A DNA stretch of 64,000 bases, from NCBI GenBank assembly GCA_963771175.1, contig CAVYSY010000026.1, positions 352,001 to 416,000 of the forward strand, in the 5' to 3' direction. Origin of the DNA: an uncultured delta proteobacterium (lineage in GTDB: Bacteria; Myxococcota; Myxococcia; Myxococcales; Myxococcaceae). A program made the translations under genes and the position numbers. The first letter of the stretch is position 1. Each line of letters begins with the position of its first letter. The notes under the pieces were generated by a model. That model ran no database searches, was not told where the DNA came from, and worked only from the letters and a program-made list of their open reading frames with translations. This document shows positions 15,799-34,181 of the stretch, one piece after another.

Positions 15799-17567
15799 AT
15801 GACCACCCAGAACCAGACCACCCCCACGCTCCCCGAGGCCCAGCGCGGCCCGGCGGAGAAGCTCCTGGACCTCGTCCTCGGGGGCTCCGCGCACCTGTGG
15901 CACAACCGCCCGGGCCTGGACGTGAACGGCGTCTGGCACCCGGCCCAGGCGGCGAAGCCGGACCTCGTCCGCCGCGGCACCCCGGTGAAGCCCGGCCTCT
16001 TCGTGCCCGCCGCGGTGAAGCTCTACGGCCAGCTGCTGGACATCTACCGGCTCAACACGGACCTGATGGCGCACTTCGCCTCCTACGCGCTCACGCAGAC
16101 GGACTGGCGCGATCTCAAGGTGGCCACCTGCGCGCTGATGCTCGTGCAGAGCCACTCCGGGCAGCCCGTGCGCGAGGACGACGGCTCCATCGCGTTCCAC
16201 GACGACGACTTCCGCGCCATCGGCGAGGCCATGCTCCTCCACTACGAGCGCAAGTCCACGCGCATGCTCACGCCCAAGGCGGTGCTGCGGGTGGCCGAGC
16301 TGCTCGAGACGCCGGAGATCGCCCGCCTCAACCGCGAGGCCGGCTTCGGTGACCCCGCGTCCCGCAAGCCGCCGCTCGGCCGCTGGAAGCGCGTGGCGAC
16401 GAAGTGGCTGCGGCTGCGCGAGCAGAACCTGCCCATGCTCCAGGGCCTGGTGAAGGCCGGCTACAAGGAGACGCTCAAGAGGATCGCCCGCAAGGCCGGT
16501 TACAAGCCGGTGTCGCAGGCCTTCTTCGAGGTGCTCGGCTGGAAGCAGAAGCAGGCGGCCGCGGGCCACCGCTCGGTGGGCCTGGAGGGACTCAAGCTCG
16601 TCAAGCGGGAGCGCTTCGACGGGCTCTCGGAGGCGGAGATCTGCGAGTGGATCGAGCTGGAGCGCCTCTCCTACAAGGAGGTGGTGGGCCGGCTGCCCAA
16701 GGACCTGGGCCTGACGCCGGCCATCATGGCGGCGCTCCTGCCCTCGCTGTCGGACCGCGACTTGCGCATGCTGACGCCCACGCTCGAGGAGCTGGGGCTG
16801 ATGTCCGACCCCGCGATCCGCGCGCGCTGGGAGAAGGCGGTCGCAGACGGCGACCGACCAGCGCGCGCTCCACATCGCGAAGAACGTCCGCAGCCAGGAG
16901 CTGAAGGCGAAGCTGGAGGAGGCGAGCGACAACGCGGCGAAGGCGGCGGTGGCGGAGGCGACGGCCGAGACGGACGTGAGGGTGATGTTCCTCATCGACA
17001 AGTCGGGCTCCATGGAGGGCGCCATCGAGCAGTCCAAGGAGGCGCTGTCGCGCATCCTCGCCGGCTTCCCGCTGGAGAAGCTGCACATCGCGTCGTTCGA
17101 CACGATGGGCACGGTGCTGAAGCCCAAGGCGGCGAGCCGGGCGGCGGTGCAGCACATGCTCGCAGGGGATTCAGGCGTCGGGCGGCACGACGCACGCGGC
17201 CGGTGTGCATGCGCTGCACCGGGCGGGAGTGCGGGTGCCGGAGGAGGCGAAGCTCGTCGTCATCGTCGTGGGTGACGAGGCCGGCGAGGCGGGTGACCAG
17301 TTCGCCCGCGCCTTCCGCGAGTGCGGCTACAGCGTGGCCGCCATGGCGCTGCTGGTGAGCGTGGCCAGCACGCGGGGCAGCACCGTGCGCACGTGCGCGG
17401 CGCAGCTCCGGGTGCCGTTCAGCGAGGTGCAGGTGGACCAGTTCGAGGACCCGTACCAGGTCCCCCGCGTGCTCAAGGCGCTGATGGACGCGCCGACGGC
17501 GACCGGGGCCAGCCAGTCCGGCTGGGTCGAGCGGGTGATGCGCACGCCGCTGCTGAAGGTGGCGTGA
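15799..17567 (+). CDS. vWA domain protein with a large helical N-terminal region (possibly TROVE-like); frameshifts near 16850 and 17170
   Basis: GGAGG RBS; C-terminal vWA with MIDAS FLIDKSGSM and IVVGDE. Confidence 0.75.
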
Positions 17568-23858: not shown

Positions 23859-23955
23859 GTCGTCAGGAACACCGTCCGCCTCACGTCTCCCAAGCGGAAA
23901 ACCCGGCCGGGCCGAGCCCTCGGTCCGGGCCGGAGTGGACGCGAGGAGGCGTGAC

Positions 23956-24201
23956 ATGGCGACGCTGAACATCACCTACAACGGGCTGTCCTCGGACCTG
24001 CCGCTGGAGCTGGACGGCCACGTGGCGGACGTGGACGTGCGGCGCATCGCGGTGGAGGTGGTGCGCTCGGGCGGGGCGCCGGGGCTGCACATCGCCAACC
24101 TGCGCGAGGACGCCTTCGCCCACTACGTGGTGGACCGGTTCCGCGGGCCCCGGGGCGAGGAGCGCATCTACCTGCGGCCCAAGGTGCCCTTCGGGGCGTG
24201 A
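23956..24201 (+). CDS. Candidate ubiquitin-like (beta-grasp) protein, 81 aa, ending PKVPFGA
   Basis: GAGGAGG RBS; beta-beta-alpha-beta pattern with an extended tail and penultimate Gly; directly upstream of ThiF. Confidence 0.65.
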   Translation: MATLNITYNGLSSDLPLELDGHVADVDVRRIAVEVVRSGGAPGLHIANLREDAFAHYVVDRFRGPRGEERIYLRPKVPFGA

Positions 24202-24214
24202 GGGAGGGCCCACC

Positions 24215-24793
24215 ATGCGCATCGTCTTCTGCGGAGTGGGGGCCATCGGCTCCACGGCGGCGGTGCTGTGCCGCAACCTGGAGGCGACGCTCGTCTTCAT
24301 CGACTTCGACCGGGTGGAGTCCAAGAACCTGCTGGCGCAGGCCTTCGTGAAGCCCTCGGTGGGGAAGAACAAGGCGGAGGCGCTGAAGCTCCAGTTGCTC
24401 AACCTGCACGGGGTGAAGGCCGAGGCCTTCGGCGTGCGGGTGACGCGGGACAACGTGGCGGCGCTGTGCGGGAGCGCGGACCTGCTCGTCGACTGCTTCG
24501 ACAACCAGGAGAGCCGGCTGCTGCTGAGCGGGTTCGCCCGGAGCGCGGGCAAGCCGCTGGTGCACGGGGCGCTGGCGGCGGACGGCACCTTCGGGCTGGT
24601 GCGCTGGGACGAGCGCTTCGTCCCGGACGCCGAGGACACCGTGGGCCAGGCCACCTGCGAGGGCGGCGCGCACCTGCCGCTCATCGGCCAGCTCGGCGCC
24701 ACGCTCGCACGGGTAGTGCAGGACTTCGTGAAGCACGGCACTCGCCGTGACGCGATGGTGAGCCTCGTGGCGGTGACGCCGACCGCGAGCTGA
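24215..24793 (+). CDS. ThiF/MoeB-family E1-like adenylyltransferase
   Basis: GVGAIG, IDFDRVESKNL, GKNKAE and VDCFDN motifs; candidate catalytic Cys in QATCEG. Confidence 0.88.
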   Translation: MRIVFCGVGAIGSTAAVLCRNLEATLVFIDFDRVESKNLLAQAFVKPSVGKNKAEALKLQLLNLHGVKAEAFGVRVTRDNVAALCGSADLLVDCFDNQESRLLLSGFARSAGKPLVHGALAADGTFGLVRWDERFVPDAEDTVGQATCEGGAHLPLIGQLGATLARVVQDFVKHGTRRDAMVSLVAVTPTAS

Positions 24794-24828
24794 AGGAAGG
24801 GGGATATGCTCCAGGGCACGAGGTCCTC

Positions 24829-25422
24829 ATGCACCGTGTCGCGTTGCTCCTCTGTTCCCTCTGTGTCCTCTGCCCGCGGGTAGCGCTGGCGGAAGACTTC
24901 GTGACCCGCATCCAGAACTGGTTCTCGGGGCTCGGGAAGCCCGCGGCCCCGCCCCCTCCCGAAGACCTGGGTGCCCGGAACACCTTCACCATCAACCCGA
25001 TGGTGCTCCGGGACGAGCGGCTCGGCGTCGAGTACGAGCGCGCCTTCGGCCGGGGCTTCTCCGTCTACCTCGCGCCCGAGTTCGCCTATGGCCAAGCGGA
25101 GCACTCCTGGAACCTGTCGCTCGGAGGGACGCTGGGCACGCGCTTCTTCGTGCTCGGCAGCGCCCCCAGCGGCATCTACTTCGGACCCGAGTTCGGCGTG
25201 GACTACCAGCGCGCCTACCAGGACCAGAAGCTGCGGAAGGGCTTCGGGCTGGGGCTCGGCGGGAACGTCGGCTGGACCCTGGTGCTCTTCAACCGCCTCA
25301 CGGTCGCGGCGGGGCTCTCGGCCCAGTACCGGGCCATCCCGGACCTCGAGTCCTCCGAGGAGGAGGCCATCCGTGTGGAGCTCGTGCCCACCCCTCGACT
25401 GGCCTTCGGCGTGGCCTTCTGA
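24829..25422 (+). CDS. Putative small outer-membrane beta-barrel protein
   Basis: Signal peptide, amphipathic strands and a terminal Phe (LAFGVAF). Confidence 0.65.
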   Translation: MHRVALLLCSLCVLCPRVALAEDFVTRIQNWFSGLGKPAAPPPPEDLGARNTFTINPMVLRDERLGVEYERAFGRGFSVYLAPEFAYGQAEHSWNLSLGGTLGTRFFVLGSAPSGIYFGPEFGVDYQRAYQDQKLRKGFGLGLGGNVGWTLVLFNRLTVAAGLSAQYRAIPDLESSEEEAIRVELVPTPRLAFGVAF

Positions 25423-25430
25423 CCCGGGGC

Positions 25431-26207
25431 CTACCGCCGCTTCACCGCGAAGGGCCCGAAGGCCTGGTCGGCCGGCATCACCTCGACGAGGTTGATGTTC
25501 ACATGGGCCGGTCGCGACGCCGTCCACACCACGATGTCCGCGATGTCCCGCGCGGTGAGCGGCTCCATGCCCGCGTACGTGGCGTTGGCGCGCGAGGCAT
25601 CGCCCTTGAAGCGCACCAGTGAGAACTCGGTCTCGACCATGCCGGGCTCGATGTTGGTGACGCGCACCCGGGTGCCGATCAGGTCCGCCTTGAGGTTCTG
25701 GGAGAACTGGTGGACGAAGGCCTTGGTGGCGCCGTAGACGTTGCCGCCCGGGTACGGGTAGGTGGCCGCCACCGAGCCGATGTTCACCACGTGCCCGCGG
25801 TTGCGCGCCACCATGCCCGGCAGCAGCGCGCGCGTCACGTAGAGCAGGCCCTTGCAGTTGGTGTCGATCATCCGCTCCCAGTCATCGAGCGAGCCCTGGT
25901 GCGCGGGCTCGAGCCCCAGGCCCAGGCCGGCGTTGTTGACGAGGATGTCCACCTCGGAGAAGGGCGGGGAGAGCCGGGCGAGCGAGTCCTCCACCTCGCG
26001 GCGCTGGCTCACGTCGAAGAGGAGGACGTGCGAGGGACCCGGCAGGCGCGCGGCGAGCTCCTCGAGGCGGGACTCGCGGCGGCCGGTGAGGACGAGGCGG
26101 GCACCAGCGGCGGAGAGGAGCTCGGCGCAGGCCGCGCCGATACCGGAGCTGGCCCCCGTGACGAGGGCGGTCTGGCCCGAGAGAGGGCCTTGGACAGGAG
26201 CGTTCAT
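25431..26207 (-). CDS. Short-chain dehydrogenase, YdfG-like
   Basis: TGASSGIG, NNAG, YPGGNVYGATK and IEPGMV. Confidence 0.9.
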   Translation of the reverse strand: MNAPVQGPLSGQTALVTGASSGIGAACAELLSAAGARLVLTGRRESRLEELAARLPGPSHVLLFDVSQRREVEDSLARLSPPFSEVDILVNNAGLGLGLEPAHQGSLDDWERMIDTNCKGLLYVTRALLPGMVARNRGHVVNIGSVAATYPYPGGNVYGATKAFVHQFSQNLKADLIGTRVRVTNIEPGMVETEFSLVRFKGDASRANATYAGMEPLTARDIADIVVWTASRPAHVNINLVEVMPADQAFGPFAVKRR

Positions 26208-26227
26208 GGAGCCGCCATACTACCGGC

Positions 26228-27614
26228 TCACGGGGAGGGCCAGCGCTCCAGTTCCATCTCGTCGAGGAACACCGTGTGGTTGTTGCCGTTCAGCGGCTGG
26301 ACGGCGATGCCGCGCACGGCCTTCAGGGTGAGCCCGTCGTTGGGTGCGCCCGCGGGCTGCCAGTCGTTCCGCCGGGTGAAGGCCGACAGGGGCACGCTCA
26401 TCCACTTCCAGCCGACGTTGTCATCCTTGAAGCCGAACTCGAAGCGCTCGGCCGAGTCCGCGCTGTCGCCGTTGTCCCACAGCTCCAGGCGGAAGGAGTC
26501 TCCGGTGTTGGTGCCGTGGAACCAGAAGTTCAGGTAGTGCCCCTGGCTCCAATCCAGGGGCGTCTCGAAGGTGCGCGCGAGGCTGGCCTGCGACGAGCTG
26601 GCGATGTCGTACTCCAGCACGAACGTGTTCCCCACGTGCCCATACTCATGCAGCCAGACGTTGAGCCGCGAGCCCGACCCGACCGACATCGTCCAGGTGC
26701 CGAGCGCCTCGAAGTCCTCCACCACCTCCTTCGGAGCGGCCAGCCCGTAGCGGACCTCGTCATAGAAGGAGACCATCGGCGAGCCCGGCCAGGTGAAGGA
26801 GCCCATCCAGTACTCGGTGCCCGGACCGACGCCGGGCCAGAAGTTCATGATGATCCGCCCCGGATGGGAGGGCAACGACCCCAGCGGGCCCGTCGCGCTC
26901 TGGACACGCGAGCCGTCGACGTACCAGTGGAGGGCCTCGCGCGTCCATTCGAGGCCGTAGGTGTGGAAGGCCTCCGCGGCGTCGAAGGGAAGGTCGAGCC
27001 CCGCGTAGTGGCCCTGTCCGTTGACCACGTAGTTCATCTGCATCCGCCGGGTGTTCAGCCCGACGAAGGCGATGTCGATGCCATCCCAGCGCGTATTCTC
27101 AGCCGGGCCCGTGTAGATGCTGAAGGACGTCAGCGTGCCCGAGCCGCGCGCGGGCTTCATCCGGACCTCGTAGCGCCCGTAGCCGTGGAGCCGCGTGGAG
27201 GCGACCTCGCCCGAAGCATAGGGGCGGCCGGAGCACCCGTCCGGGCACGGCGTCTTGTCGAGCTGCAGCTCCAGGATCCCACCGTTGGCCCGCACGTGGT
27301 CGGCACGCCAGCCGGCATTGAAGTCCTCGCTGCTGGCCCAGCCATCCGAGCGGCGCCAACGCGTGGTGTCGAACGTGTCGAACGTGTCGTCGAAGGTCCC
27401 AGGGCCCTCCAGCCAGGAGAGTGTCGGGGGGCCACCGTCGACGCCGCCGACATAATCGCTACTTCCCGCGTCCGTCCCACCAGCCACCGCCACCTCCTCC
27501 CTGCCCCACACCTCCATCGGAGGTGGAGATGCCGTCGTAGTCGGACCAGCGGCAGCCCGCCTGGAGCAGACCGGTCGCCAGCAGGAGCAGTCCCCATCTC
27601 ACGTTGCGAGCCAT
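26228..27614 (-). CDS. GH16 (licheninase-like) + CBM11-like lipoprotein with catalytic Glu residues absent; frameshift near 27500
   Basis: AAGGAGG RBS, signal peptide MARNVRWGLLLLATGLLQAGC; YGRYEVRMKP, FHTYGLEW, WYVDG and IMNFWPG; active-site segment reads WDGIDIAF. Confidence 0.75.
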
Positions 27615-27782
27615 GTGTCGCACCCTCCTTGGACGCGCATGGCGCCGAATCTACCAAGCCGGGCCCTCCCGGGTGCGCCGCCTGGCTGCTCGCTCTCCGA
27701 AACCGTCCGAAAAACTCCGGGAAAATGCCGCGTCAGGATTCCGGGAACCCAGCGTCCATTACCCGTGAAAGGAGCGGTGACG

Positions 27783-27956
27783 ATGCGGACGATGACGAAG
27801 CAGAGCACGATGAATCCGAAGCAGCACAGCAACGCCGGTTTCAAGCCCGTGCGCTTCAGCATCCGCCCGGTCCCCGCCTCCTCGTATCCGCTGTATCCCG
27901 TCGACGGGCGCGATTCCCGCGGCTCCTTCGACCCGCCACACCCTGGCCTCTTCTGA
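27783..27956 (+). CDS. Putative leader peptide (57 aa) upstream of the tRNA array
   Basis: AAGGAG at 27769-27774, 8 nt before the ATG; MRTMTKQSTMNPKQ...RGSFDPPHPGLF*. Confidence 0.6.
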   Translation: MRTMTKQSTMNPKQHSNAGFKPVRFSIRPVPASSYPLYPVDGRDSRGSFDPPHPGLF

Positions 27957-27983
27957 TGCTCCGCCTCCCGAAGTGAGGCGGCG

Positions 27984-28028
27984 GCGAAAGAGGCCGGGTT
28001 CCCGAAAGGGGCCCGGCCTCTCGCTTTT
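27984..28028 (+). terminator. Intrinsic terminator / attenuator hairpin
   Basis: GAGGCCGGGTTCCC-GAAA-GGGGCCCGGCCTC stem-loop, extended by GCGA/TCGC and followed by TTTT. Confidence 0.7.
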
Positions 28029-28044
28029 CCAGCCTCACTCCTCC

Positions 28045-28131
28045 GGGGACGTAGAGCGTTACGCGAAGACGCACCGGCCTGTAGAGCCGGAGCCTTCAAT
28101 GGCCCGCTGGGTTCAACTCCCAGCGTCCCCA
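28045..28131 (+). tRNA. tRNA-Tyr(GTA), atypical D-loop
   Basis: Acceptor GGGGACG/CGTCCCC; anticodon arm CCGGC-CTGTAGA-GCCGG; long variable arm; TTCAACT T-loop. Confidence 0.75.
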
Positions 28132-28150
28132 CTCCGCAGTGGAAGTACGG

Positions 28151-28168
28151 GTTCTCTGACAACTGAAT
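28151..28168 (+). promoter_or_regulatory. boxA-like antitermination element
   Basis: GTTCTCTGACAACTGAAT resembles the GTTCTTTGAAAACTGAAT motif of rrn leaders and spacers. Confidence 0.45.
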
Positions 28169-28211
28169 CGCAGTGGTGAAGCGCCGCCTGCCCTCAAGCG
28201 AGGCGGCACAC

Positions 28212-28282
28212 GCCTCCGTAGCTCACGGGTAGAGCATCCGCCTCTTAAGCGGACGGTGAGGGTTCGAGTCCCTCCGGAGGTA
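28212..28282 (+). tRNA. tRNA-Lys(CTT)
   Basis: TCCGC-CTCTTAA-GCGGA; acceptor GCCTCCG/CGGAGGT; GGTTCGAGTCC. Confidence 0.88.
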
Positions 28283-28289
28283 CTCATAC

Positions 28290-28363
28290 GCGGATGTCGT
28301 CCAGCGGCAGGACACCGGCCTCCCAAGTCGGAAACACGGGTTCGAATCCCGTCACCCGCTCCA
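28290..28363 (+). tRNA. tRNA-Gly(CCC), CCA encoded
   Basis: CCGGC-CTCCCAA-GTCGG; GGTTCGAATCC; ends TCCA. Confidence 0.88.
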
Positions 28364-28368
28364 CCTAT

Positions 28369-28439
28369 TCCGGGATCGTCCAGCGGCAGGACGGCGGGCT
28401 CTGACCCCGCAGACGCAGGTTCGAATCCTGCTCCCGGAG
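28369..28439 (+). tRNA. tRNA-Gln(CTG)
   Basis: GCGGG-CTCTGAC-CCCGC; acceptor TCCGGGA/TCCCGGA. Confidence 0.9.
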
Positions 28440-28462
28440 CTGTCGCAGCACAGGCAACACAT

Positions 28463-28534
28463 TCCACGGTAGCTCAATGGCAGAGCAGGCGGCTGTTAAC
28501 CGCAAGATTGGGGGTTCGAGTCCCTCCCGTGGAG
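28463..28534 (+). tRNA. tRNA-Asn(GTT)
   Basis: GCGG-CTGTTAA-CCGC; acceptor TCCACGG/CCGTGGA. Confidence 0.9.
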
Positions 28535-28539
28535 CAACT

Positions 28540-28615
28540 CGGGGTGTAGCTCAGTCTGGACGAGAGCGCGTGCTTGGGGTGCACGAGGTCGTCGGTTCGA
28601 ATCCGGCCACCCCGA
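28540..28615 (+). tRNA. tRNA-Pro(GGG)
   Basis: CGTGC-TTGGGGT-GCACG; acceptor CGGGGTG/CACCCCG. Confidence 0.9.
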
Positions 28616-28635
28616 CTCCGTTTCAACCGTTTCAT

Positions 28636-28709
28636 CTGGGTGTGGCTCAACTTGGTAGAGCGCGCGGTTCGGATCCGCGAGGTTGCAGGTTCAAATCCTG
28701 TCACCCAGA
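28636..28709 (+). tRNA. tRNA-Pro(CGG), A37
   Basis: CGCGG-TTCGGAT-CCGCG; acceptor CTGGGTG/CACCCAG. Confidence 0.88.
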
Positions 28710-28715
28710 CATTTC

Positions 28716-28789
28716 GCCTCCGTAGCTCAGGGGAACAGAGCGCACGGCTCCGGACCGTGAGGCCGCAGGTTCGAATCCTGCCGGGGGCA
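28716..28789 (+). tRNA. tRNA-Arg(CCG)
   Basis: CACGG-CTCCGGA-CCGTG; GGTTCGAATCC. Confidence 0.88.
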
Positions 28790-28798
28790 CAGCTTCGA

Positions 28799-28870
28799 TG
28801 CGGAGTGGGACCGGACGTCCCACCGGGTCTCATACGCCTGGGTCGCAGGGTTCGACTCCCTGCTCCGCAA
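28799..28870 (+). tRNA. tRNA-Met/fMet-like (CAT), short atypical D arm
   Basis: CGGGT-CTCATAC-GCCTG; acceptor TGCGGAG/CTCCGCA. Confidence 0.7.
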
Positions 28871-28882
28871 CTTCTTCATCAT

Positions 28883-28955
28883 GCCGTCCTGGCGTAGGTG
28901 GTCCGCGCGCCCGTCTGAAGAGCGGGAGGACCGGGTTCGATTCCTGGGGACGGCA
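28883..28955 (+). tRNA. tRNA-Phe(GAA), G37
   Basis: CCCGT-CTGAAGA-GCGGG; acceptor GCCGTCC/GGACGGC. Confidence 0.85.
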
Positions 28956-28963
28956 CTCGTTTT

Positions 28964-29037
28964 GCTCCTGTAGCTCAGCTGGTAGCAGCACCGGTTTCGT
29001 AAACCGGGGGTCGTCGGTTCGAACCCGACCGGGAGCA
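28964..29037 (+). tRNA. tRNA-Thr(CGT)
   Basis: CCGGT-TTCGTAA-ACCGG; acceptor GCTCCTG/CGGGAGC. Confidence 0.88.
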
Positions 29038-29053
29038 CTGTTTCACGCAGCAT

Positions 29054-29125
29054 GTTGGCTGAAGGCAAAGGGTGAGCCACCGGTCGTGAATCCGGTTCCA
29101 GAGGGTTCGAGTCCCTCCAGCCGAC
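29054..29125 (+). tRNA. tRNA-His(GTG)-like, irregular anticodon loop
   Basis: 8-bp acceptor GTTGGCTG/CAGCCGAC (G-1:C73); ACCGG-TCGTGAAT-CCGGT, possibly with a one-base sequencing deletion. Confidence 0.65.
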
Positions 29126-29132
29126 CTTCTTC

Positions 29133-29205
29133 GCACGCCGAGCCAGCTGGAGACGGCGTTGGTCCCACACACCAATTTCGCCGGGTTCGATCCCCGGGGC
29201 GTGCA
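29133..29205 (+). tRNA. tRNA-Val(CAC), C33
   Basis: TTGGT-CCCACAC-ACCAA; acceptor GCACGCC/GGCGTGC. Confidence 0.72.
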
Positions 29206-29226
29206 CTGCAACAGACTCCCCAACGC

Positions 29227-29301
29227 GTCCGCGTGGCCCAATCGGGAGAGGCGGCTGGCTCAAACCCAGCTCACGTGCGAGTTCGACTCTCGCCGCGGAC
29301 A
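29227..29301 (+). tRNA. tRNA-Leu(CAA) with short variable region
   Basis: GCTGG-CTCAAAC-CCAGC; acceptor GTCCGCG/CGCGGAC; variable region only TCACGT. Confidence 0.78.
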
Positions 29302-29327
29302 TACCCCCCAAGAAGGACAACCGAGTC

Positions 29328-29870
29328 ATGGAGACACTGGTCCTCAACCAGTCCTATGAGCCCGTGGCCCGGATCTCCTGGCAGCGAGCGGTGATGCTGC
29401 TGTGGCAGGGGAAGGTCGAGGTGGTCGAGGAGTACGACGACCGCCTCGTCCGCTCCGTCACCGTCGAGATCCGGATGCCCTCCGTCATCCGCTTCCTGCG
29501 CGGCGCGCGTCGGGGCGGGCGCGGCGTGAAGTTCAGCCGCGACAACGTCTACATGCGCGATGGCTGCCGGTGCCAGTACTGCGGCCGGAAGGTGTCGCGC
29601 CCCGAGGCCACGTACGACCACGTCGTGCCCCGGGCCCAGGGCGGCCGTACCACCTGGGAGAACATCGTGATCGCCTGCGTGCCCTGCAACCAGAAGAAGG
29701 GTGGGCGCACGCCGGTGCAGGCGGGGATGGCGCTGCTCTCCGCTCCCGTGAAGCCTCGCAAGCTCACGGGTTCGGTGCAGCTCACCTTCGCCCACGAGAA
29801 GGGCATGCCCGTCTCGTGGAAGAAGTTCCTCCGTGACGTCGCGTACTGGCACACGGAGCTGGAGGAGTGA
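29328..29870 (+). CDS. HNH endonuclease (McrA-like) inside the tRNA array
   Basis: LVLNQSYEP, RDGCRCQYCG and TYDHVVPRAQGGRTTWENIVIACVPCNQKKG; AAGGA RBS. Confidence 0.93.
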   Translation: METLVLNQSYEPVARISWQRAVMLLWQGKVEVVEEYDDRLVRSVTVEIRMPSVIRFLRGARRGGRGVKFSRDNVYMRDGCRCQYCGRKVSRPEATYDHVVPRAQGGRTTWENIVIACVPCNQKKGGRTPVQAGMALLSAPVKPRKLTGSVQLTFAHEKGMPVSWKKFLRDVAYWHTELEE

Positions 29871-29874
29871 GCGG

Positions 29875-30006
29875 CGGGTGAAGGGGAACCACCAGAGGTG
29901 GTTCCCCGGCTCTGCTCCGTGACAGGAGCAGTGCTGACAGGGAAGGCCAGAGGCGTTCCCGACACCCGTACGCCCCGCACGCCGGCAGGCGGGCCCTGCT
30001 GCCGGC
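29875..30006 (+). ncRNA. Candidate structured RNA (four-way junction plus hairpin)
   Basis: CGGGTG/CACCCG closes three hairpins, followed by GCCGGCAG/CTGCCGGC. Confidence 0.4.
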
Positions 30007-30012
30007 ATATTT

Positions 30013-30099
30013 GGAAGGTCGACGCCGGAGGCCCGGCGGCCCGCCTCGAAAGCGGTGCGGGCGCATGACGCGCTCGGGGTTCGAGTCCCTTGCCTTCTG
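30013..30099 (+). tRNA. tRNA-Ser(CGA), divergent
   Basis: CCGC-CTCGAAA-GCGG; long variable arm; acceptor GGAAGGT/GCCTTCT; G73. Confidence 0.7.
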
Positions 30100-30112
30100 T
30101 TCCGTCTCTTCT

Positions 30113-30200
30113 GGAAGTGTGAACTGGCGATGGCGCCAGGCCCCGTTGCTAGCGGGTGCGGACCGGCTTCCGGTCTGGGGTTCGAGTCCTCCGCCTTCCG
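30113..30200 (+). tRNA. tRNA-Ser(GCT), divergent
   Basis: CCCG-TTGCTAG-CGGG; long variable arm GACCGG-CTT-CCGGTC; GGAAG/CTTCC; G73. Confidence 0.68.
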
Positions 30201-30314
30201 TTCCTCTGCCCTCTTTCCGACGGTGTCGTGTGACCGCCGGACGGGTGAGCCCCCCGCCCCAGGAGCCTAGTGTCCCGCGCGCCCGGCATCCCCGCCGGGA
30301 AGGGGAAGACACAG

Positions 30315-30854
30315 ATGCGCGACTTCAAATTGGGACGCTGGGCGGTGTTCGGCCTCGTGCTCGCTGCTCCCGTGCTGGGTCTGGGCTGCGGCAATGACGA
30401 CGACGAATCGGAGCAGGAGAAGATCGAAAGGGGTCTTTCCCTCTCCCCCGTGCCCCTCAACCTGGACGGGAAGGACCGCGACCTCGTGGGCCTGGGCAGC
30501 TACATCGTCAACGCGCAGGCCGCCTGCAACGACTGCCACACCAACCCTCCCTTCGAGCCGGGAGGCGACCCCTTCAAGGGAGAGCCGGAGAAGATCAACG
30601 CGGCGCGCTTCCTCGGGGGTGGGACGCCCTTCGGCCCGACCCTCGTCTCGCCCAACATCACCCCGGATGCTTCCGGCAACCCGGGAGGCGCAGACTTCGA
30701 GGAGTTCCAGCGCTACATGCGCACCGGCAGGGAGGAGGACGGCGACATCCTCCAGGTGATGCCGTGGCCCATCTACAAGAACATGAGCGACCGGGAGCTG
30801 CGCGCCATCTACGAGTACCTGCGCGCCATCCCCCACGTCGAGTCCGGACCCTGA
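30315..30854 (+). CDS. Monoheme cytochrome c lipoprotein
   Basis: Lipobox LGLGC; CNDCH; SPNITPD and MPW...RAIYEYL. Confidence 0.85.
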   Translation: MRDFKLGRWAVFGLVLAAPVLGLGCGNDDDESEQEKIERGLSLSPVPLNLDGKDRDLVGLGSYIVNAQAACNDCHTNPPFEPGGDPFKGEPEKINAARFLGGGTPFGPTLVSPNITPDASGNPGGADFEEFQRYMRTGREEDGDILQVMPWPIYKNMSDRELRAIYEYLRAIPHVESGP

Positions 30855-31004
30855 GCTGAAACGTCGGGGTCACAACCCCGTGAACCCTGGAAGTTCGGAA
30901 TCCACCATTTCCGCTCCGCACTGACGCGCGGCGTAGTGAACCCACCCGCGTGTCGGGCGCATGGATGCGCGCTGCAAGCAACCCCTACGCGGAAGGAGCG
31001 GCAC

Positions 31005-31211
31005 ATGGAATGGCTCGAGTTCGGTCGGTGGTCCCCGGAGGTGGAGAAGCGCCTCGCGCGCCAGGCGGTGCGCCTGAGTATCGCGGCCCAGCCCTCTCGC
31101 CCTCCCGCCCAGCATCCCGAGAGCGCCAGCGCCCGGGCCCGCCGGCTGGAGGCCCTGCTGCGGCAGACCCCAGCCTCCAACCCCTGGGGGCACCCCGCCG
31201 CCGAGTGCTGA
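31005..31211 (+). CDS. Small hypothetical protein
   Basis: AAGGAG RBS before MEWLEFGRWSPEVEKRL. Confidence 0.45.
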   Translation: MEWLEFGRWSPEVEKRLARQAVRLSIAAQPSRPPAQHPESASARARRLEALLRQTPASNPWGHPAAEC

Positions 31212-31347
31212 GCGGCACGTCGGGGGCCGGGTCGGGAATGCGCCCGGGCGACAGGGATTGAATTGAGAGGTCCCGACGCGAGGTCGGGGTCCACCACTGC
31301 GATTCAGCACGCTAGAGTGCCCCTGCGCCGACGAGGCGTTCCCGACC

Positions 31348-34181
31348 ATGGCCACGAGGAAGAGCGAGGACAACGAGCGTCTCATCGACCGCGATCTCAC
31401 CGCGCTGGCGCGAGACGGGAAGCTGACGGCCGCGCACGGCGTGGACGGTCCGGTGACGGAAGTGCTGGGCCTGCTCACGCGAGGGGGCAAGCACCCGCTG
31501 CTCTCCGGGGAGCCCGGCGTGGGCAAGTCCGCCGTGGTGCAGGAGGTGGCGCGCCGCATCACCGAGGGCCGCGTGGACGCGGAGCTGGCCAACGCGCGCA
31601 TGGTGGAGGTGTCCGTCGCCAACATCCTGGCGCGCAGCACCCAGCGCCAGGCGGCGGAGAGCTTCGAGGAGTTGCTGGCGCTGGCTGAGCCGGCACCCCT
31701 GCCCCATCGTCTACATCCGGGACCTGCCCGCGGTCATCGGCGGGCCCCTGGCCCCCGTGGCCTTCCGCGCCCTGCGCACCGGGGGCATCCGCTTCATCTT
31801 CGAGACCGAGCCCAAGCGCGTGCAGGAGTTGCTGCGCGCGGACGAGGCCTTCGCCGAGCGGCTCCACCTCGTGCCCGTGCAACGAGCCGCCCGCCGAGCG
31901 GGCCCGCTGGATATTGGGCCGCGTGGCCGAGGAGCTGGAGCGCGAGCTGCACCTGCCCATCGACCCGGCGGCGTGCGACCTGACGCTGCGGCTGGCCTCC
32001 AAGTTCCTCCTGGCGCAGCGGCTGCCGCGCAAGGCCATCGAGCTGCTCAAGGAGACGGCCGCGGAGGCCGCCAGCGCGGCCAAGGACCGCGTGGGCCCCG
32101 AGGACGTCCTCACCCGCTTCTGCGCCACCACCCGACTGCCGCGCTTCGTGGTGGACGACGCGATGCCGCTGGATCTGGAGGAGACGGAGCGCTTCTTCGG
32201 AGAGCGGCTGCTGGGCCAGACGGACGCGGTGCAGGCCGTGCTGCGCTCGGTGGCGCTGCTCAAGGCGGGGCTCAACGACCCGCGCCGGCCGCTCGGCGTG
32301 TTCCTCTTCGCCGGTCCCACCGGCGTGGGCAAGACGCAGCTCGCCAAGCTGCTGGCCGAGTACCTCTTCGGCTCGCAGGACCGGCTCGTGCGCCTCAACA
32401 TGGCGGACTTCCCCAACGACGGCGACGAGAGCGTCCCCTTCGGGGCCTCGTGGGCTCCCGCGCTGGAGACGAAGCGCGGCGAGCTGACGCGCGCTGCTCG
32501 AGGGCAAGGTGTTCACCGTGCTGCTGCTCGACGAGTTCGAGAAGGCCGCGCGCAGCGTGCACGACCGCTTCCTCCAGCTCTTCGACGAGGGCACCTTCGT
32601 CAACGGCGCGGGCGAGACGGTGCTCCTGCAACAACACCGTCATCGTGGCCACGTCCAACGTGGGCGCCGAGGTGTACCGCGAGCCGGCCATCGGCTTCAC
32701 GGGCTCGCGCCGTCCCGAGGAGCTGCATCACCGAGGTGGACCGGCGCATCGCCGAGGCCTTCCGCCCCGAGTTCCTCAACCGCTTCGACGCCATCTGCCA
32801 CTTCCAGCCGCTGACGAAGGTGGAGATCCGCAAGCATCGCCCAGCGCGAGGTGGGCCGGGTGCTGGAGCGCGAGGGCATCCGGGCACGTGCGCTGGACGT
32901 GGAGGTGACACCGGAGGTGGTGGACCTGCTGGTGGAGCGCGGCTACTCGCCGCAGTTCGGCGCGCGCTACCTGCAGCGGGAAATCGAGAAGACGCTCACC
33001 GCGGCGCTGGCGGTGGAGATCGCCCGCCGGCCACTGCCCCCGGGAACACCGGTGCGGGTGGAGACCCGACCGGGCGGCAAGGTGGTGGCGGTGGCCGAGC
33101 TCGCGCCGCGCCCGCGCGAGGAGACGGCGCAGCTCGCGCTGCCCACGGAGAAGTCGGTGTCCGCGGTGAAGCGGCGGCTGGACAAGAAGTCGCTGCTCAA
33201 CGAGATGGACCGGCTGGTGGGCCGCGCGCGGGCGCTGTCGGTGTCGGCGAACCGGCCGAGGCTGGAGGAGCGACGCGCGCAGTTGCTGGCGGAGACACAG
33301 GCGCCCAACCTCTGGGACGACCCGCAGCGCGCGGCCTCGACGCTGCGGGCCTTCCGGACGGTGGAGGCTCAACTCAACGAGCTGGACCGGATGGAGGAGC
33401 GGACCAGTTCGCGCGGCGGCTGGTGCGCGAGGCGAGGGGCGAGGCGCAGCTCGCGTCGGCGGCGAAGCAGGTGGAGGAGGTGGCGCGCGAGGTGCAGATG
33501 GCCGAGGCGCTGGACGCGGCGGGAGCGACGGACCACGTCGACGACGCGCTGGTGGACATCTGCGCGAGCGAGACGGGCGAGGGACAAGACACCTGGGTGC
33601 AGGAGCTGGCGACCATGTACCTGGGCTGGGCGGAGCGGCGCGGCTACGAGGCCATCGCGGTGGCGGAGGCGGAGGAGCCCTTCCGGGTGGTGGTGCGAAT
33701 CGCCGGACCGGGAGCCTACGGCTACCTGGCGGGCGAGGCGGGCCTGCACCGGCGCATCGACGAGGAGAAGCGCCAGCGTGCCTACGTGCGGGTGCACCGG
33801 GGAGGACCGGTGCAGGAGGCGGAGAGCCTGGACGTGGAGGGCCGCGACGTGAGGCGGCACGAGGGGACGTTCCTCGCGCGGGTGAAGACGGAAGTGACGG
33901 TGCGGGACGAGACCACCGGCCGGATGATGACGCTGGCGGGCGCGGGCGAGCTGGACGAGCTGAAGGACATCGCCTCGCGAGTGGTGAAGGGCCAGGGCGG
34001 CAGCCACACGGCGGACGAGGCCCGGCGCTACTACCTGGGCCGGGGTGCTCGGGTGGAGGACCCGCGCACCGGCGCCGGCACTCCGCGCGTGAAGGACGTG
34101 CTGCGCGGCGAGCTGGACGTCTTCATCGCCGCGTGGATCTCCCGTCCGCCCCCCGAGGGCCCCACCACCATCGCGAGCTGA
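31348..34181 (+). CDS. ClpA/B-type AAA+ ATPase fused to a release factor 2-like C-terminal region (several frameshifts)
   Basis: GEPGVGKS, LPRKAIELL, GQTDAV, FAGPTGVGKT, LLLDEFEKA, FRPEFLNRFD and FGARYLQR; then NLWDDPQRA, MYLGWAERRGY, GAYGYLAGEAGLHR and VEDPRTG...VLRGELDVFI. Confidence 0.85.

Follow-up and report, generated by a model that had tools for sequence, protein, structure and literature searches.

The window analysed here (64,000 nucleotides of contig CAVYSY010000026.1, from an uncultured member of the Myxococcaceae, with a base composition of 70% G+C) contains a dense array of transfer RNA (tRNA) genes whose first member, tRNA-Tyr, is preceded by a short open reading frame (ORF) and two consecutive hairpins. 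Judged from its sequence and its relatives, this ORF is a real, conserved and translated-looking small gene, and the conserved linkage of ORF, hairpins and tRNAs points to it being the 5' part of the transcript of the array. The second hairpin (27983-28028 with its UUUU) would most likely be a partial transcription stop in an operon leader, i.e. an attenuator. We tentatively propose that the array is gated by an attenuator that is sensitive to translation, which is the most likely single specific mechanism among those considered, closely followed by a constitutive leaky stop; we infer termination at the hairpin, its dependence on ribosome position and the physiological signal.

The structures concerned are built from arms named A to F from 5' to 3' (Table 1): arm A is formed by the last sense codons of the ORF, arms B and C make hairpin 1, arms D and E make the terminator-like hairpin, and arm F lies between its U tract and tRNA-Tyr. 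Because arm A can also pair with arm D, the 5' arm of the terminator, the outcome is expected to depend on the position of the leading ribosome. With a ribosome on the stop codon or close to it, arm A would be covered, and the terminator would form and end transcription. A ribosome that is delayed, absent, or stalled before about codon 47 would instead leave arm A free, the antiterminator would form first, and transcription would read through into the tRNAs. The array would thus be on when translation falters.

The leader ORF and its peptide family

An earlier reading of this DNA, made from the letters alone (the sequence-only reading), had described a ribosome-binding site (RBS), a 57-codon ORF, a hairpin at 27961-27981, a further hairpin, read as a terminator, up to 28028, a gap of 16 nt before the first tRNA, and a complementarity between the end of the ORF and the second hairpin, and all of these are indeed present. 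A translated and conserved leader was also a condition of its model, and this is supported by the G+C content of third codon positions (GC3), by a family of 12 peptides, and by the RBS and start codon in 4 of 4 divergent loci. The G+C content of the three codon positions is 0.55, 0.53 and 0.86, against 0.64, 0.68 and 0.64 in the same frame just upstream, and the change takes place at the ATG. It is because of this coding-type GC3 from the ATG on, the conserved RBS, start and stop, and the peptide family that we regard the ORF as a real gene.

A word-indexed protein search with the leader peptide returned five clusters of homologues of 58-63 aa with 58-95% identity, and a full profile search against 1.84 billion representatives returned nine proteins at E<=0.001, seven of them 45-63 aa long. 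The long matches P0010 (1508 aa) and P0012 (3032 aa), in which about 25 residues are matched in several stretches, were kept out of the alignment, which comprises 12 sequences of 45-63 aa. Its invariant positions are M1, T3, M10, N11, P12, G19, P29, P31, P39, L56 and F57, and F49 and P54 are present in at least 90% of the members; the reading frame is preserved across several indels. All 12 peptides share a terminal L-F, with the stop codon immediately after it in 11 of them and one extra Ser in the remaining one. The peptide matched nothing in Pfam, NCBIfam or the ESM Atlas, and a tblastn search for a phage or plasmid origin of the small gene gave no match at E<=1 among 50,697 phage and 72,556 plasmid records.

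A DNA comparison gave 64 pattern matches among genome contigs, one of which was confirmed as a related locus. This locus, L001, lies on a contig of an Archangium sp. metagenome-assembled genome, and is syntenic with the window over 24136-32105 at 89-98% identity. Within the leader ORF the two differ at 8 nucleotides, which amount to four synonymous codon changes and three amino-acid changes. More divergent loci were reached by using a 187-aa antisense ORF, running across tRNA-Tyr, the hairpins and the leader, as a query against a protein collection, which led to P0024-P0028. These database 'hypothetical proteins' are almost certainly antisense translations of the leader-hairpin-tRNA region and not real proteins. 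The nucleotides of the divergent loci are hence those of back-translated antisense ORFs, in which about two thirds of the sense nucleotides are fixed and third positions are left free. The RBS, the spacer and the start codon (antisense RIVTAPF) are identical in all four divergent loci that reach this far (P0024, P0025, P0027 and P0028), and hairpin 1 begins 2 nt past the stop codon in each of the seven loci, i.e. the window, L001 and P0024-P0028.

Linkage with the tRNA array

The array comprises 13 genes and one tRNA-like element within 1257 nt, separated by spacers of 4-22 nt save for two long ones. It is syntenic in L001, and tRNA genes also lie downstream in P0024 and P0026, the two divergent loci with an antisense ORF long enough to show it. 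No promoter-like site was found in 27000-30200 by a scan for the sigma-70-type consensus. Given this result and the gap of only 16 nt between the U tract and tRNA-Tyr, the array must be transcribed through the hairpin, and the absence of a promoter of its own after 28028 agrees with what the sequence-only reading required. The hairpin at 27983-28025 is thus a structure inside the transcription unit, not its end. No T-box or other cis-regulatory family of Rfam was matched at E<=1 in 27000-30000, where the sole match in the leader region is a chance-level one to a snoRNA model (E 0.24).

In Rfam, 11 tRNA matches reach the gathering score of 29 bits, including the tRNA-like element (29055-29125), while tRNA-Tyr (28045-28132) scores a sub-threshold 23.5 bits, and tRNA-Met (28799-28871) and tRNA-Val (29133-29206) are unmatched at E<=1. 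On reading the sequence, these three tRNAs have atypical D arms. tRNA-Tyr folds well (z -3.78), and all of its 88 nt are identical to those of L001, in contrast to about 89% identity in the flanking protein genes, which indicates that the tRNAs are under selection and argues for their expression.

The content of the array differs between the two close relatives. The tRNA-like element (29055-29127) was missed by ARAGORN, scores 31.5 bits in Rfam and folds into a cloverleaf whose anticodon loop, UCGUGAAU, has 8 nt. The corresponding slot of L001 (5197-5268 of that contig), which has conserved flanks, is occupied by an ordinary tRNA-Asp(GTC) of unrelated sequence, an exchange that looks, from the sequences, like a cassette-style replacement. 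Likewise, tRNA-Gln(CTG) at 28369-28440 of the window is absent from the otherwise collinear array of L001. The 79-nt spacer between tRNA-Tyr and tRNA-Lys holds a second hairpin (28183-28207, GCCGCCT/AGGCGGC), which stops 4 nt short of tRNA-Lys and has a stretch of 12 nt in common with hairpin 1.

Competing folds between the ORF and tRNA-Tyr

None of 200 shuffled sequences folds as well as the region 27900-28044 (z -3.68), and in the fold of this region the terminator is enclosed in a 68-nt rod (27972-28039, -50.0 kcal/mol) in which it is lengthened by the pairing of arms C and F and which ends 5 nt short of tRNA-Tyr. The core of arm F is conserved, with E-A-G invariant in the antisense alignment. 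According to an inverted-repeat listing, arm A (CCTGGCCTCTT, 27942-27952) is complementary to arm D (AAGAGGCCGGG, 27988-27998) over 11 bp, one of which is a G-U pair. In nascent RNA that still lacks the 3' arm of the terminator, the minimum-energy fold has A:D stacked on hairpin 1, forming one long hairpin (27942-27998). This antiterminator has a predicted energy of -35.5 kcal/mol, compared with -33.5 kcal/mol for the terminator alone, and the two folds are mutually exclusive.

We varied the 5' and 3' ends of the nascent RNA in the window and in L001, and the pairing probability P(A:D) was 0.69-0.94 in 29 of the 30 contexts and 0.34 in the exception. P(A:D) falls to 0 under a ribosome footprint of 32 nt with its centre at the last sense codon, and is still 0.89 when the footprint is placed at codon 10. 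The fold prediction with footprints that the sequence-only reading had asked for therefore comes out as it expected: a ribosome at the stop codon abolishes A:D and an early one does not. These models predict that antiterminator pairing dominates in the nascent RNA, and ribosome position would select the fold geometrically.

How far such pairing exceeds chance was gauged by shuffling the 88 nt upstream. All 11 nt of the 5' arm of the terminator were captured in 13 of 1000 shuffles, 5 of 1000 equalled the real fold in stability, and 70 of 2000 matched the bare A:D duplex in energy. The effect is modest, at roughly p 0.005-0.035, and not overwhelming in DNA of this base composition.

Some further repeats were considered. 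The terminator hairpin occurs once in the 64 kb of the window, which rules it out as a dispersed repeat; the other exact 11-mer, at 15991-16001, forms no hairpin. Short direct and inverted repeats shared by the leader region and tRNA-Tyr were discarded, being at the estimated chance level for 10-mers in 661 nt of 70% G+C. AGGCCGG in arm D (27990-27997) is also complementary to CCGGCCT in the 5' strand of the tRNA-Tyr anticodon stem (28074-28081), which may be a chance match in G+C-rich sequence.

Table 1. Elements of the leader region and the tRNA array, with positions in the window.
Feature	Position	Strand	Description
Conserved block, probable promoter and 5' untranslated region of the leader ORF	27716..27768	+	Near-invariant between the window and L001
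Shine-Dalgarno AGGAG	27770..27774	+	8 nt ahead of ATG 27783
Leader ORF, 57 codons and TGA	27783..27956	+	Encodes a basic Pro/Arg-rich peptide ending in RGSFDPPHPGLF before the stop
Arm A, last four sense codons P-G-L-F	27942..27952	+	CCTGGCCTCTT; 5' strand of the candidate antiterminator
Hairpin 1, arms B and C	27958..27985	+	CCGCCTC/GAGGCGG core at 27961-27981, 7 bp; -15.0 kcal/mol extended; 2 nt past the stop codon
Terminator-like hairpin	27983..28025	+	43 nt, G+C-rich, -33.5 kcal/mol; arms D 27988-98 and E 28012-22; apex CCC-GAAA-GGG
U tract TTTT	28025..28028	+	Read from the sequence; 16-nt gap to tRNA-Tyr
Arm F	28029..28039	+	Pairs with arm C, 27972-27981
tRNA array	28045..29301	+	13 ARAGORN tRNAs (Tyr, Lys, Gly, Gln, Asn, Pro, Pro, Arg, Met, Phe, Thr, Val, Leu) and a tRNA-like element
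HNH endonuclease gene	29328..29870	+	26 nt past the last tRNA; Pfam HNH 1.6e-15, HNH_5 2.8e-15

Conservation of the folds in related loci

With 94% identity, L001 is too close for covariation. Arms A and D are identical in the window and L001, and the terminators differ only at the apex (27999, 28000 and 28011): the window has a U.G pair beside a bulged U and L001 a bulged C beside an A-U pair, so that the pair is kept and stability is equal.

In the divergent loci, the stem of hairpin 1 is retained in all five, with loops of 7 or 10 nt whose sequence varies. The terminator hairpin is retained in the P0024, P0025 and P0026 loci, with one base inserted in the loop. All 18 of its pairs are possible at P0024, and at P0025 and P0026 16 of the 18 are possible, one is impossible and one is gapped. 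The A:D pairing is fully compatible with the P0024 locus, where all 11 pairs are allowed and the three that are fully determined are all paired. At P0025 and P0026 9 of the 11 pairs are still possible, the terminal pair being among those lost, and a best-case reconstruction folds as a 4+6-bp outer helix around hairpin 1.

Leader codons and the tRNAs of the array

Over the whole leader ORF, 30 of the 57 codons are read by tRNAs of the array, where 23 other ORFs of the window give a background of 35.4% (binomial p 0.006), and 156 of 5686 background windows of 57 codons reach this number. The excess is confined to the conserved N-terminus, MRTMTKQSTMNPKQ. Among the first 14 codons, 13 are array-read (Met, Arg-CGG, Thr-ACG three times, Lys-AAG, Gln-CAG, Asn and Pro-CCG), against 2-9 among the first 14 codons of the 23 other ORFs, and none of 6675 background windows of 14 codons reaches 13 (p ~5e-5 after correction over all prefix lengths).

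Two points speak against giving this match too much weight. Given the amino-acid sequence, the array-read codons of the whole ORF are as many as expected (30 vs 30.5 +/- 2.0), so that the signal is mainly one of amino-acid composition, and the match was sought after the sequence had been read. It is suggestive, not proof. That the leader serves as a supply gauge for the very tRNAs that it gates, i.e. as a feedback attenuator of a tRNA operon, is accordingly a rather doubtful extension of the proposal. If any of these tRNAs were in short supply, cleaved or poorly charged, the ribosome would be held up early in the ORF, the last codons would stay free, the antiterminator would form, and replacement tRNAs would be transcribed. 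If true, such a gauge could possibly serve recovery from translational stress or from attack on tRNAs.

Evidence against a switch, and the case for a leaky stop

A number of results weigh against translation-sensitive attenuation. The full-length RNA favours the terminator plus hairpin 1 in 5 of 5 masking conditions, with P(D:E) at 0.97-1.0 and P(A:D) at <=0.02, and since it always prefers the terminator, the antiterminator can act kinetically only. The antiterminator moreover leaves free 13 apical nucleotides of the terminator, a toehold that can nucleate independently. The findpath barrier for the terminator to displace arm A, which like all barriers given here is a heuristic estimate, comes to 1.8-3.3 kcal/mol when the local hairpin is taken by itself, to 6.2 when its apex has already formed and to 7.6 when the context is longer. 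The same procedure gave 13.2 (thr), 8.8 (leu), 11.3 (his), 11.6 (phe) and 11.9 (ilv) kcal/mol for leaders of Escherichia coli K-12; the trp leader was left out of this calibration, since its known antiterminator was not recovered. Judged by these models, the kinetic block of the terminator looks weak, and the candidate ranks below five proven attenuators. Of the mutually exclusive folds proposed by the sequence-only reading, the antiterminator thus stands as the dominant fold of the nascent RNA, but the full-length RNA always takes the terminator fold and the barrier between them is low.

The stop itself is also atypical. A terminator scan did not call the hairpin at 27983-28025, which is followed by 4 T where the rule demands at least 5 T in 8. 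In all three divergent loci with the hairpin, the U tract reads R-T-T-N (Lys to Asn in the antisense frame), i.e. the first T is a purine and at most three U remain. From hairpin 1 to arm F, the P0028 locus is shorter by about 42-45 nt, which corresponds to the absence of the whole terminator hairpin, and the P0027 locus probably lacks it likewise; with boundaries read by hand and one deletion allowed, the alignment score of P0028 goes up from 39.5 to 65.3 and that of P0027 from 51.9 to 61.1. The terminator that had been read at 27984-28028 is upheld as a strong hairpin of -33.5 kcal/mol; as a terminator it is weak by the usual rule, with only 4 U and no call by the scan, and it is absent from the P0028 locus. 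From these comparisons, the terminator hairpin is a lineage-specific module inserted between strands C and F, which can also pair together.

Covariation, proposed earlier as a check on A:D, brought no support. No compensatory change in A:D was seen among L001 and the back-translated divergent loci, data that are degenerate. The peptides of P0025 and P0026, two of the three divergent loci with the hairpin, end in PSLF, where G27945 becomes A and C27995 is unchanged, leaving an uncompensated A.C. In addition, the P0028 locus retains hairpin 1, arm F and the PGLF end despite its missing terminator hairpin, so that the conservation of arm A is explained by the peptide and not by pairing. Over the entire peptide, mean column identity among the 12 sequences is 62%, which exceeds the need of a leader that is a pure spacer. 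Finally, the Pro-rich DPP near the end of the ORF, which the sequence-only reading had suggested as a stall site, is found in just 2 of the 12 family members, and the footprint of a ribosome stalled there (mask 27918-49) would cover 8 of the 11 nt of arm A; on both counts we rejected it.

The main rival reading is that the small-protein gene is an ordinary one and that what follows it is either a leaky terminator, acting constitutively, or a hairpin that protects a 3' end, with unregulated read-through into the tRNAs and a complementarity that is a by-product of G+C richness and peptide-constrained codons. This is the next most probable explanation, and a possible one, if still an uncertain one. 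It would account for a peptide that is conserved throughout and a PGLF end that is kept even without the terminator hairpin, for the uncompensated mismatch of the PSLF lineage, and for the low refolding barrier. With six occurrences within 100 nt (in arms A, B, E and F vs C and D), the motif GCCTC/GAGGC makes alternative pairings cheap, and 70 of 2000 shuffles match the bare duplex. Cleavage by RNase P at 28044/28045 would moreover leave an upstream RNA that ends in the -50 kcal/mol rod and a 5-nt tail, and a rod with a short tail is a classical protected 3' end. However, the nested architecture, A:D around B:C versus C:F around D:E, is rare in shuffles (5-13 in 1000), a terminating ribosome must melt hairpin 1 each time, given its constant distance of 2 nt from the stop codon, and the match of the N-terminal codons to the array is left unexplained. 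Nor is a peptide that acts in trans at odds with a role of its ORF in cis: the leader peptide peTrpL is reported, in the accessible part of PMC7298713, to act in trans.

Other explanations

The rod at 27972-28039 might instead be an RNA-processing element, either a site for a double-strand-specific nuclease or a guide for the 5' maturation of tRNA-Tyr, which would part the small mRNA from the tRNA precursor in place of terminating transcription. We consider this unlikely. The rod is a near-continuous helix of about 28 bp that ends 5 nt before the tRNA, its U tract is poorly conserved, the C:F core is kept where D:E is missing, and the similar hairpin at 28183-28207 stands in a comparable place, 4 nt before tRNA-Lys and sharing 12 nt with hairpin 1. 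Yet, taken over its full length, the Tyr-Lys spacer is no more stably folded than its shuffled versions (z -0.18), and that second hairpin has, on hand reading, an uncompensated mismatch in the P0026 locus. Processing and attenuation are in any case not mutually exclusive.

Lower still is the probability that the nascent peptide is itself the sensor, its conserved F-D-W-x-P-x-P-G-L-F-stop holding the ribosome at the stop codon upon a signal, with arms A and B covered and the downstream fold fixed. Stop-codon arrest peptides are a known class (TnaC, SpeFL), and here the last residues and the position of the stop are the most conserved part besides the N-terminus, with the stop codon abutting hairpin 1 in 7 of 7 loci. 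However, the peptide resembles no described arrest peptide (it has no match in Pfam, NCBIfam or the Atlas), and an arrest at the stop would favour the terminator here, opposite to the known cases.

Equally improbable is an unusual promoter that overlaps the hairpin or lies in the Tyr-Lys spacer (28133-28211) and would make the small gene and most tRNAs separate units: myxobacteria use many alternative sigma factors, the promoter scan covered only the sigma-70-type consensus, and the 79-nt spacer is 95% conserved with L001 and contains CTGACA, but no promoter-like site was found in 27000-30200, no properly spaced -10-like element follows CTGACA on reading, and tRNA-Tyr, just 16 nt downstream of the hairpin, would still need read-through.

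Comparison with known systems

The arrangement preferred here, a translation-sensitive attenuator, has clear counterparts in the amino-acid operons of E. coli. thrL, hisL, pheL, leuL, ilvL and trpL likewise combine a short translated leader ORF with a terminator ahead of the structural genes and with an upstream competitor strand for the 5' arm of this terminator; there, ribosome position selects the fold, and we propose that the same logic would apply in the window. In control runs, a nascent antiterminator like that of the window was recovered in five of these six leaders. The differences are nonetheless substantial. The ORF of the window is long (57 codons), is conserved as a peptide and has no run of a single regulatory codon, and its terminator has 4 U and barriers of 1.8-7.6 kcal/mol compared with 8.8-13.2 kcal/mol in the E. 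coli attenuators. It also lacks an anti-antiterminator equivalent to region 1:2, and the absence of translation would consequently give read-through, whereas it gives super-attenuation in the E. coli type. Finally, the regulated genes are tRNAs and not enzymes. T-box riboswitches are likewise cis-acting antitermination devices that report tRNA supply but, unlike the window locus, they bind tRNA directly and have no leader ORF.

Another parallel is vmlR of Bacillus subtilis, a resistance gene whose attenuation, according to the sections of PMC9226507 available to us, is driven by ribosome stalling on an upstream ORF (uORF). The logic is shared, in that impaired translation of the uORF leads to an antiterminator and to read-through of an intrinsic terminator. 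As described in the same sections (PMC9226507), vmlR has a 3-codon uORF inside an anti-antiterminator hairpin and depends on NusG-dependent pausing, whereas the window would have a three-element design, 57 codons and tRNAs as its output.

With its co-oriented, closely spaced tRNAs and adjacent HNH gene, the array of the window shows the trait of L-arrays which, as far as the accessible text of PMC8421152 tells, spread horizontally and usually have an adjoining HNH endonuclease gene. The array of Anabaena 7120 described there resembles it in its dense, co-oriented tandem tRNAs and its neighbouring HNH gene, as well as in a content that varies between close relatives, although it has 26 genes and the HNH gene upstream, compared with 13-14 genes and the HNH gene downstream in the window (PMC8421152, same text). 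By another definition, that of the tRNA array unit as given in the part of Tran et al. 2015 (PMC4758250) available to us (at least 20 tRNA genes, at least 2 per kb), the density of the array is sufficient and its number of genes, 13-14, is below 20.

The Anabaena 7120 array is reported to be silent until translation is impaired, which is the behaviour that the attenuator model would predict for the window, and its control was assigned to direct repeats over the promoter (PMC8421152, accessible text). The words leader and terminator, and any word beginning with attenuat-, do not occur in that paper. This array is the one studied case of how long tRNA arrays are silenced and switched on, and operates via a putative repressor at the promoter. 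Searches of the literature that joined tRNA arrays with myxobacteria, leader peptides, attenuators or uORFs returned no description of such control, which agrees with the impression of the sequence-only reading that attenuation of a tRNA array had not been described before.

If the proposed switch is true, it would constitute a direct, protein-free link from ribosome performance to tRNA supply, and would extend leader-peptide attenuation from amino-acid and resistance operons to tRNA genes. Even if it fails, two findings are new: a conserved family of 45-63-aa peptides fixed ahead of tRNA-Tyr-led arrays in Archangium-like myxobacteria, and the recognition that several database 'hypothetical proteins' are antisense read-outs of the leader locus.

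Genomic context

Upstream of the leader, on the opposite strand, lies a divergent gene for a GH16/CBM11 glycanase (Pfam). We infer a promoter within the conserved block that precedes the Shine-Dalgarno sequence (27716-27768), which is still discernible, on hand reading, in the antisense protein P0025 from a divergent locus; the consensus scan found no sigma-70 consensus in this block. It contains a direct repeat, TCCGGGAA, at 27716-27723 and 27740-27747 with a spacing of 24 nt. By analogy with the promoter repeats that control the Anabaena array (PMC8421152, accessible text), this repeat is a possible regulator site.

Farther downstream, at 31348-34181, a ClpB-like AAA+ ATPase (AAA, AAA_2, AAA_lid_9 and ClpB_D2-small) is joined to a release-factor PCRF domain, making it a translation-related neighbour of the array. 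This reading needs several frame changes, which could reflect a broken gene, sequencing errors or programmed frameshifts. On the other side, at 23935-24793, an 88-aa ORF without a family match is directly followed by a short gene of the ThiF family (E1-like), and the two could form a small ubiquitin-like or sulfur-carrier pair.

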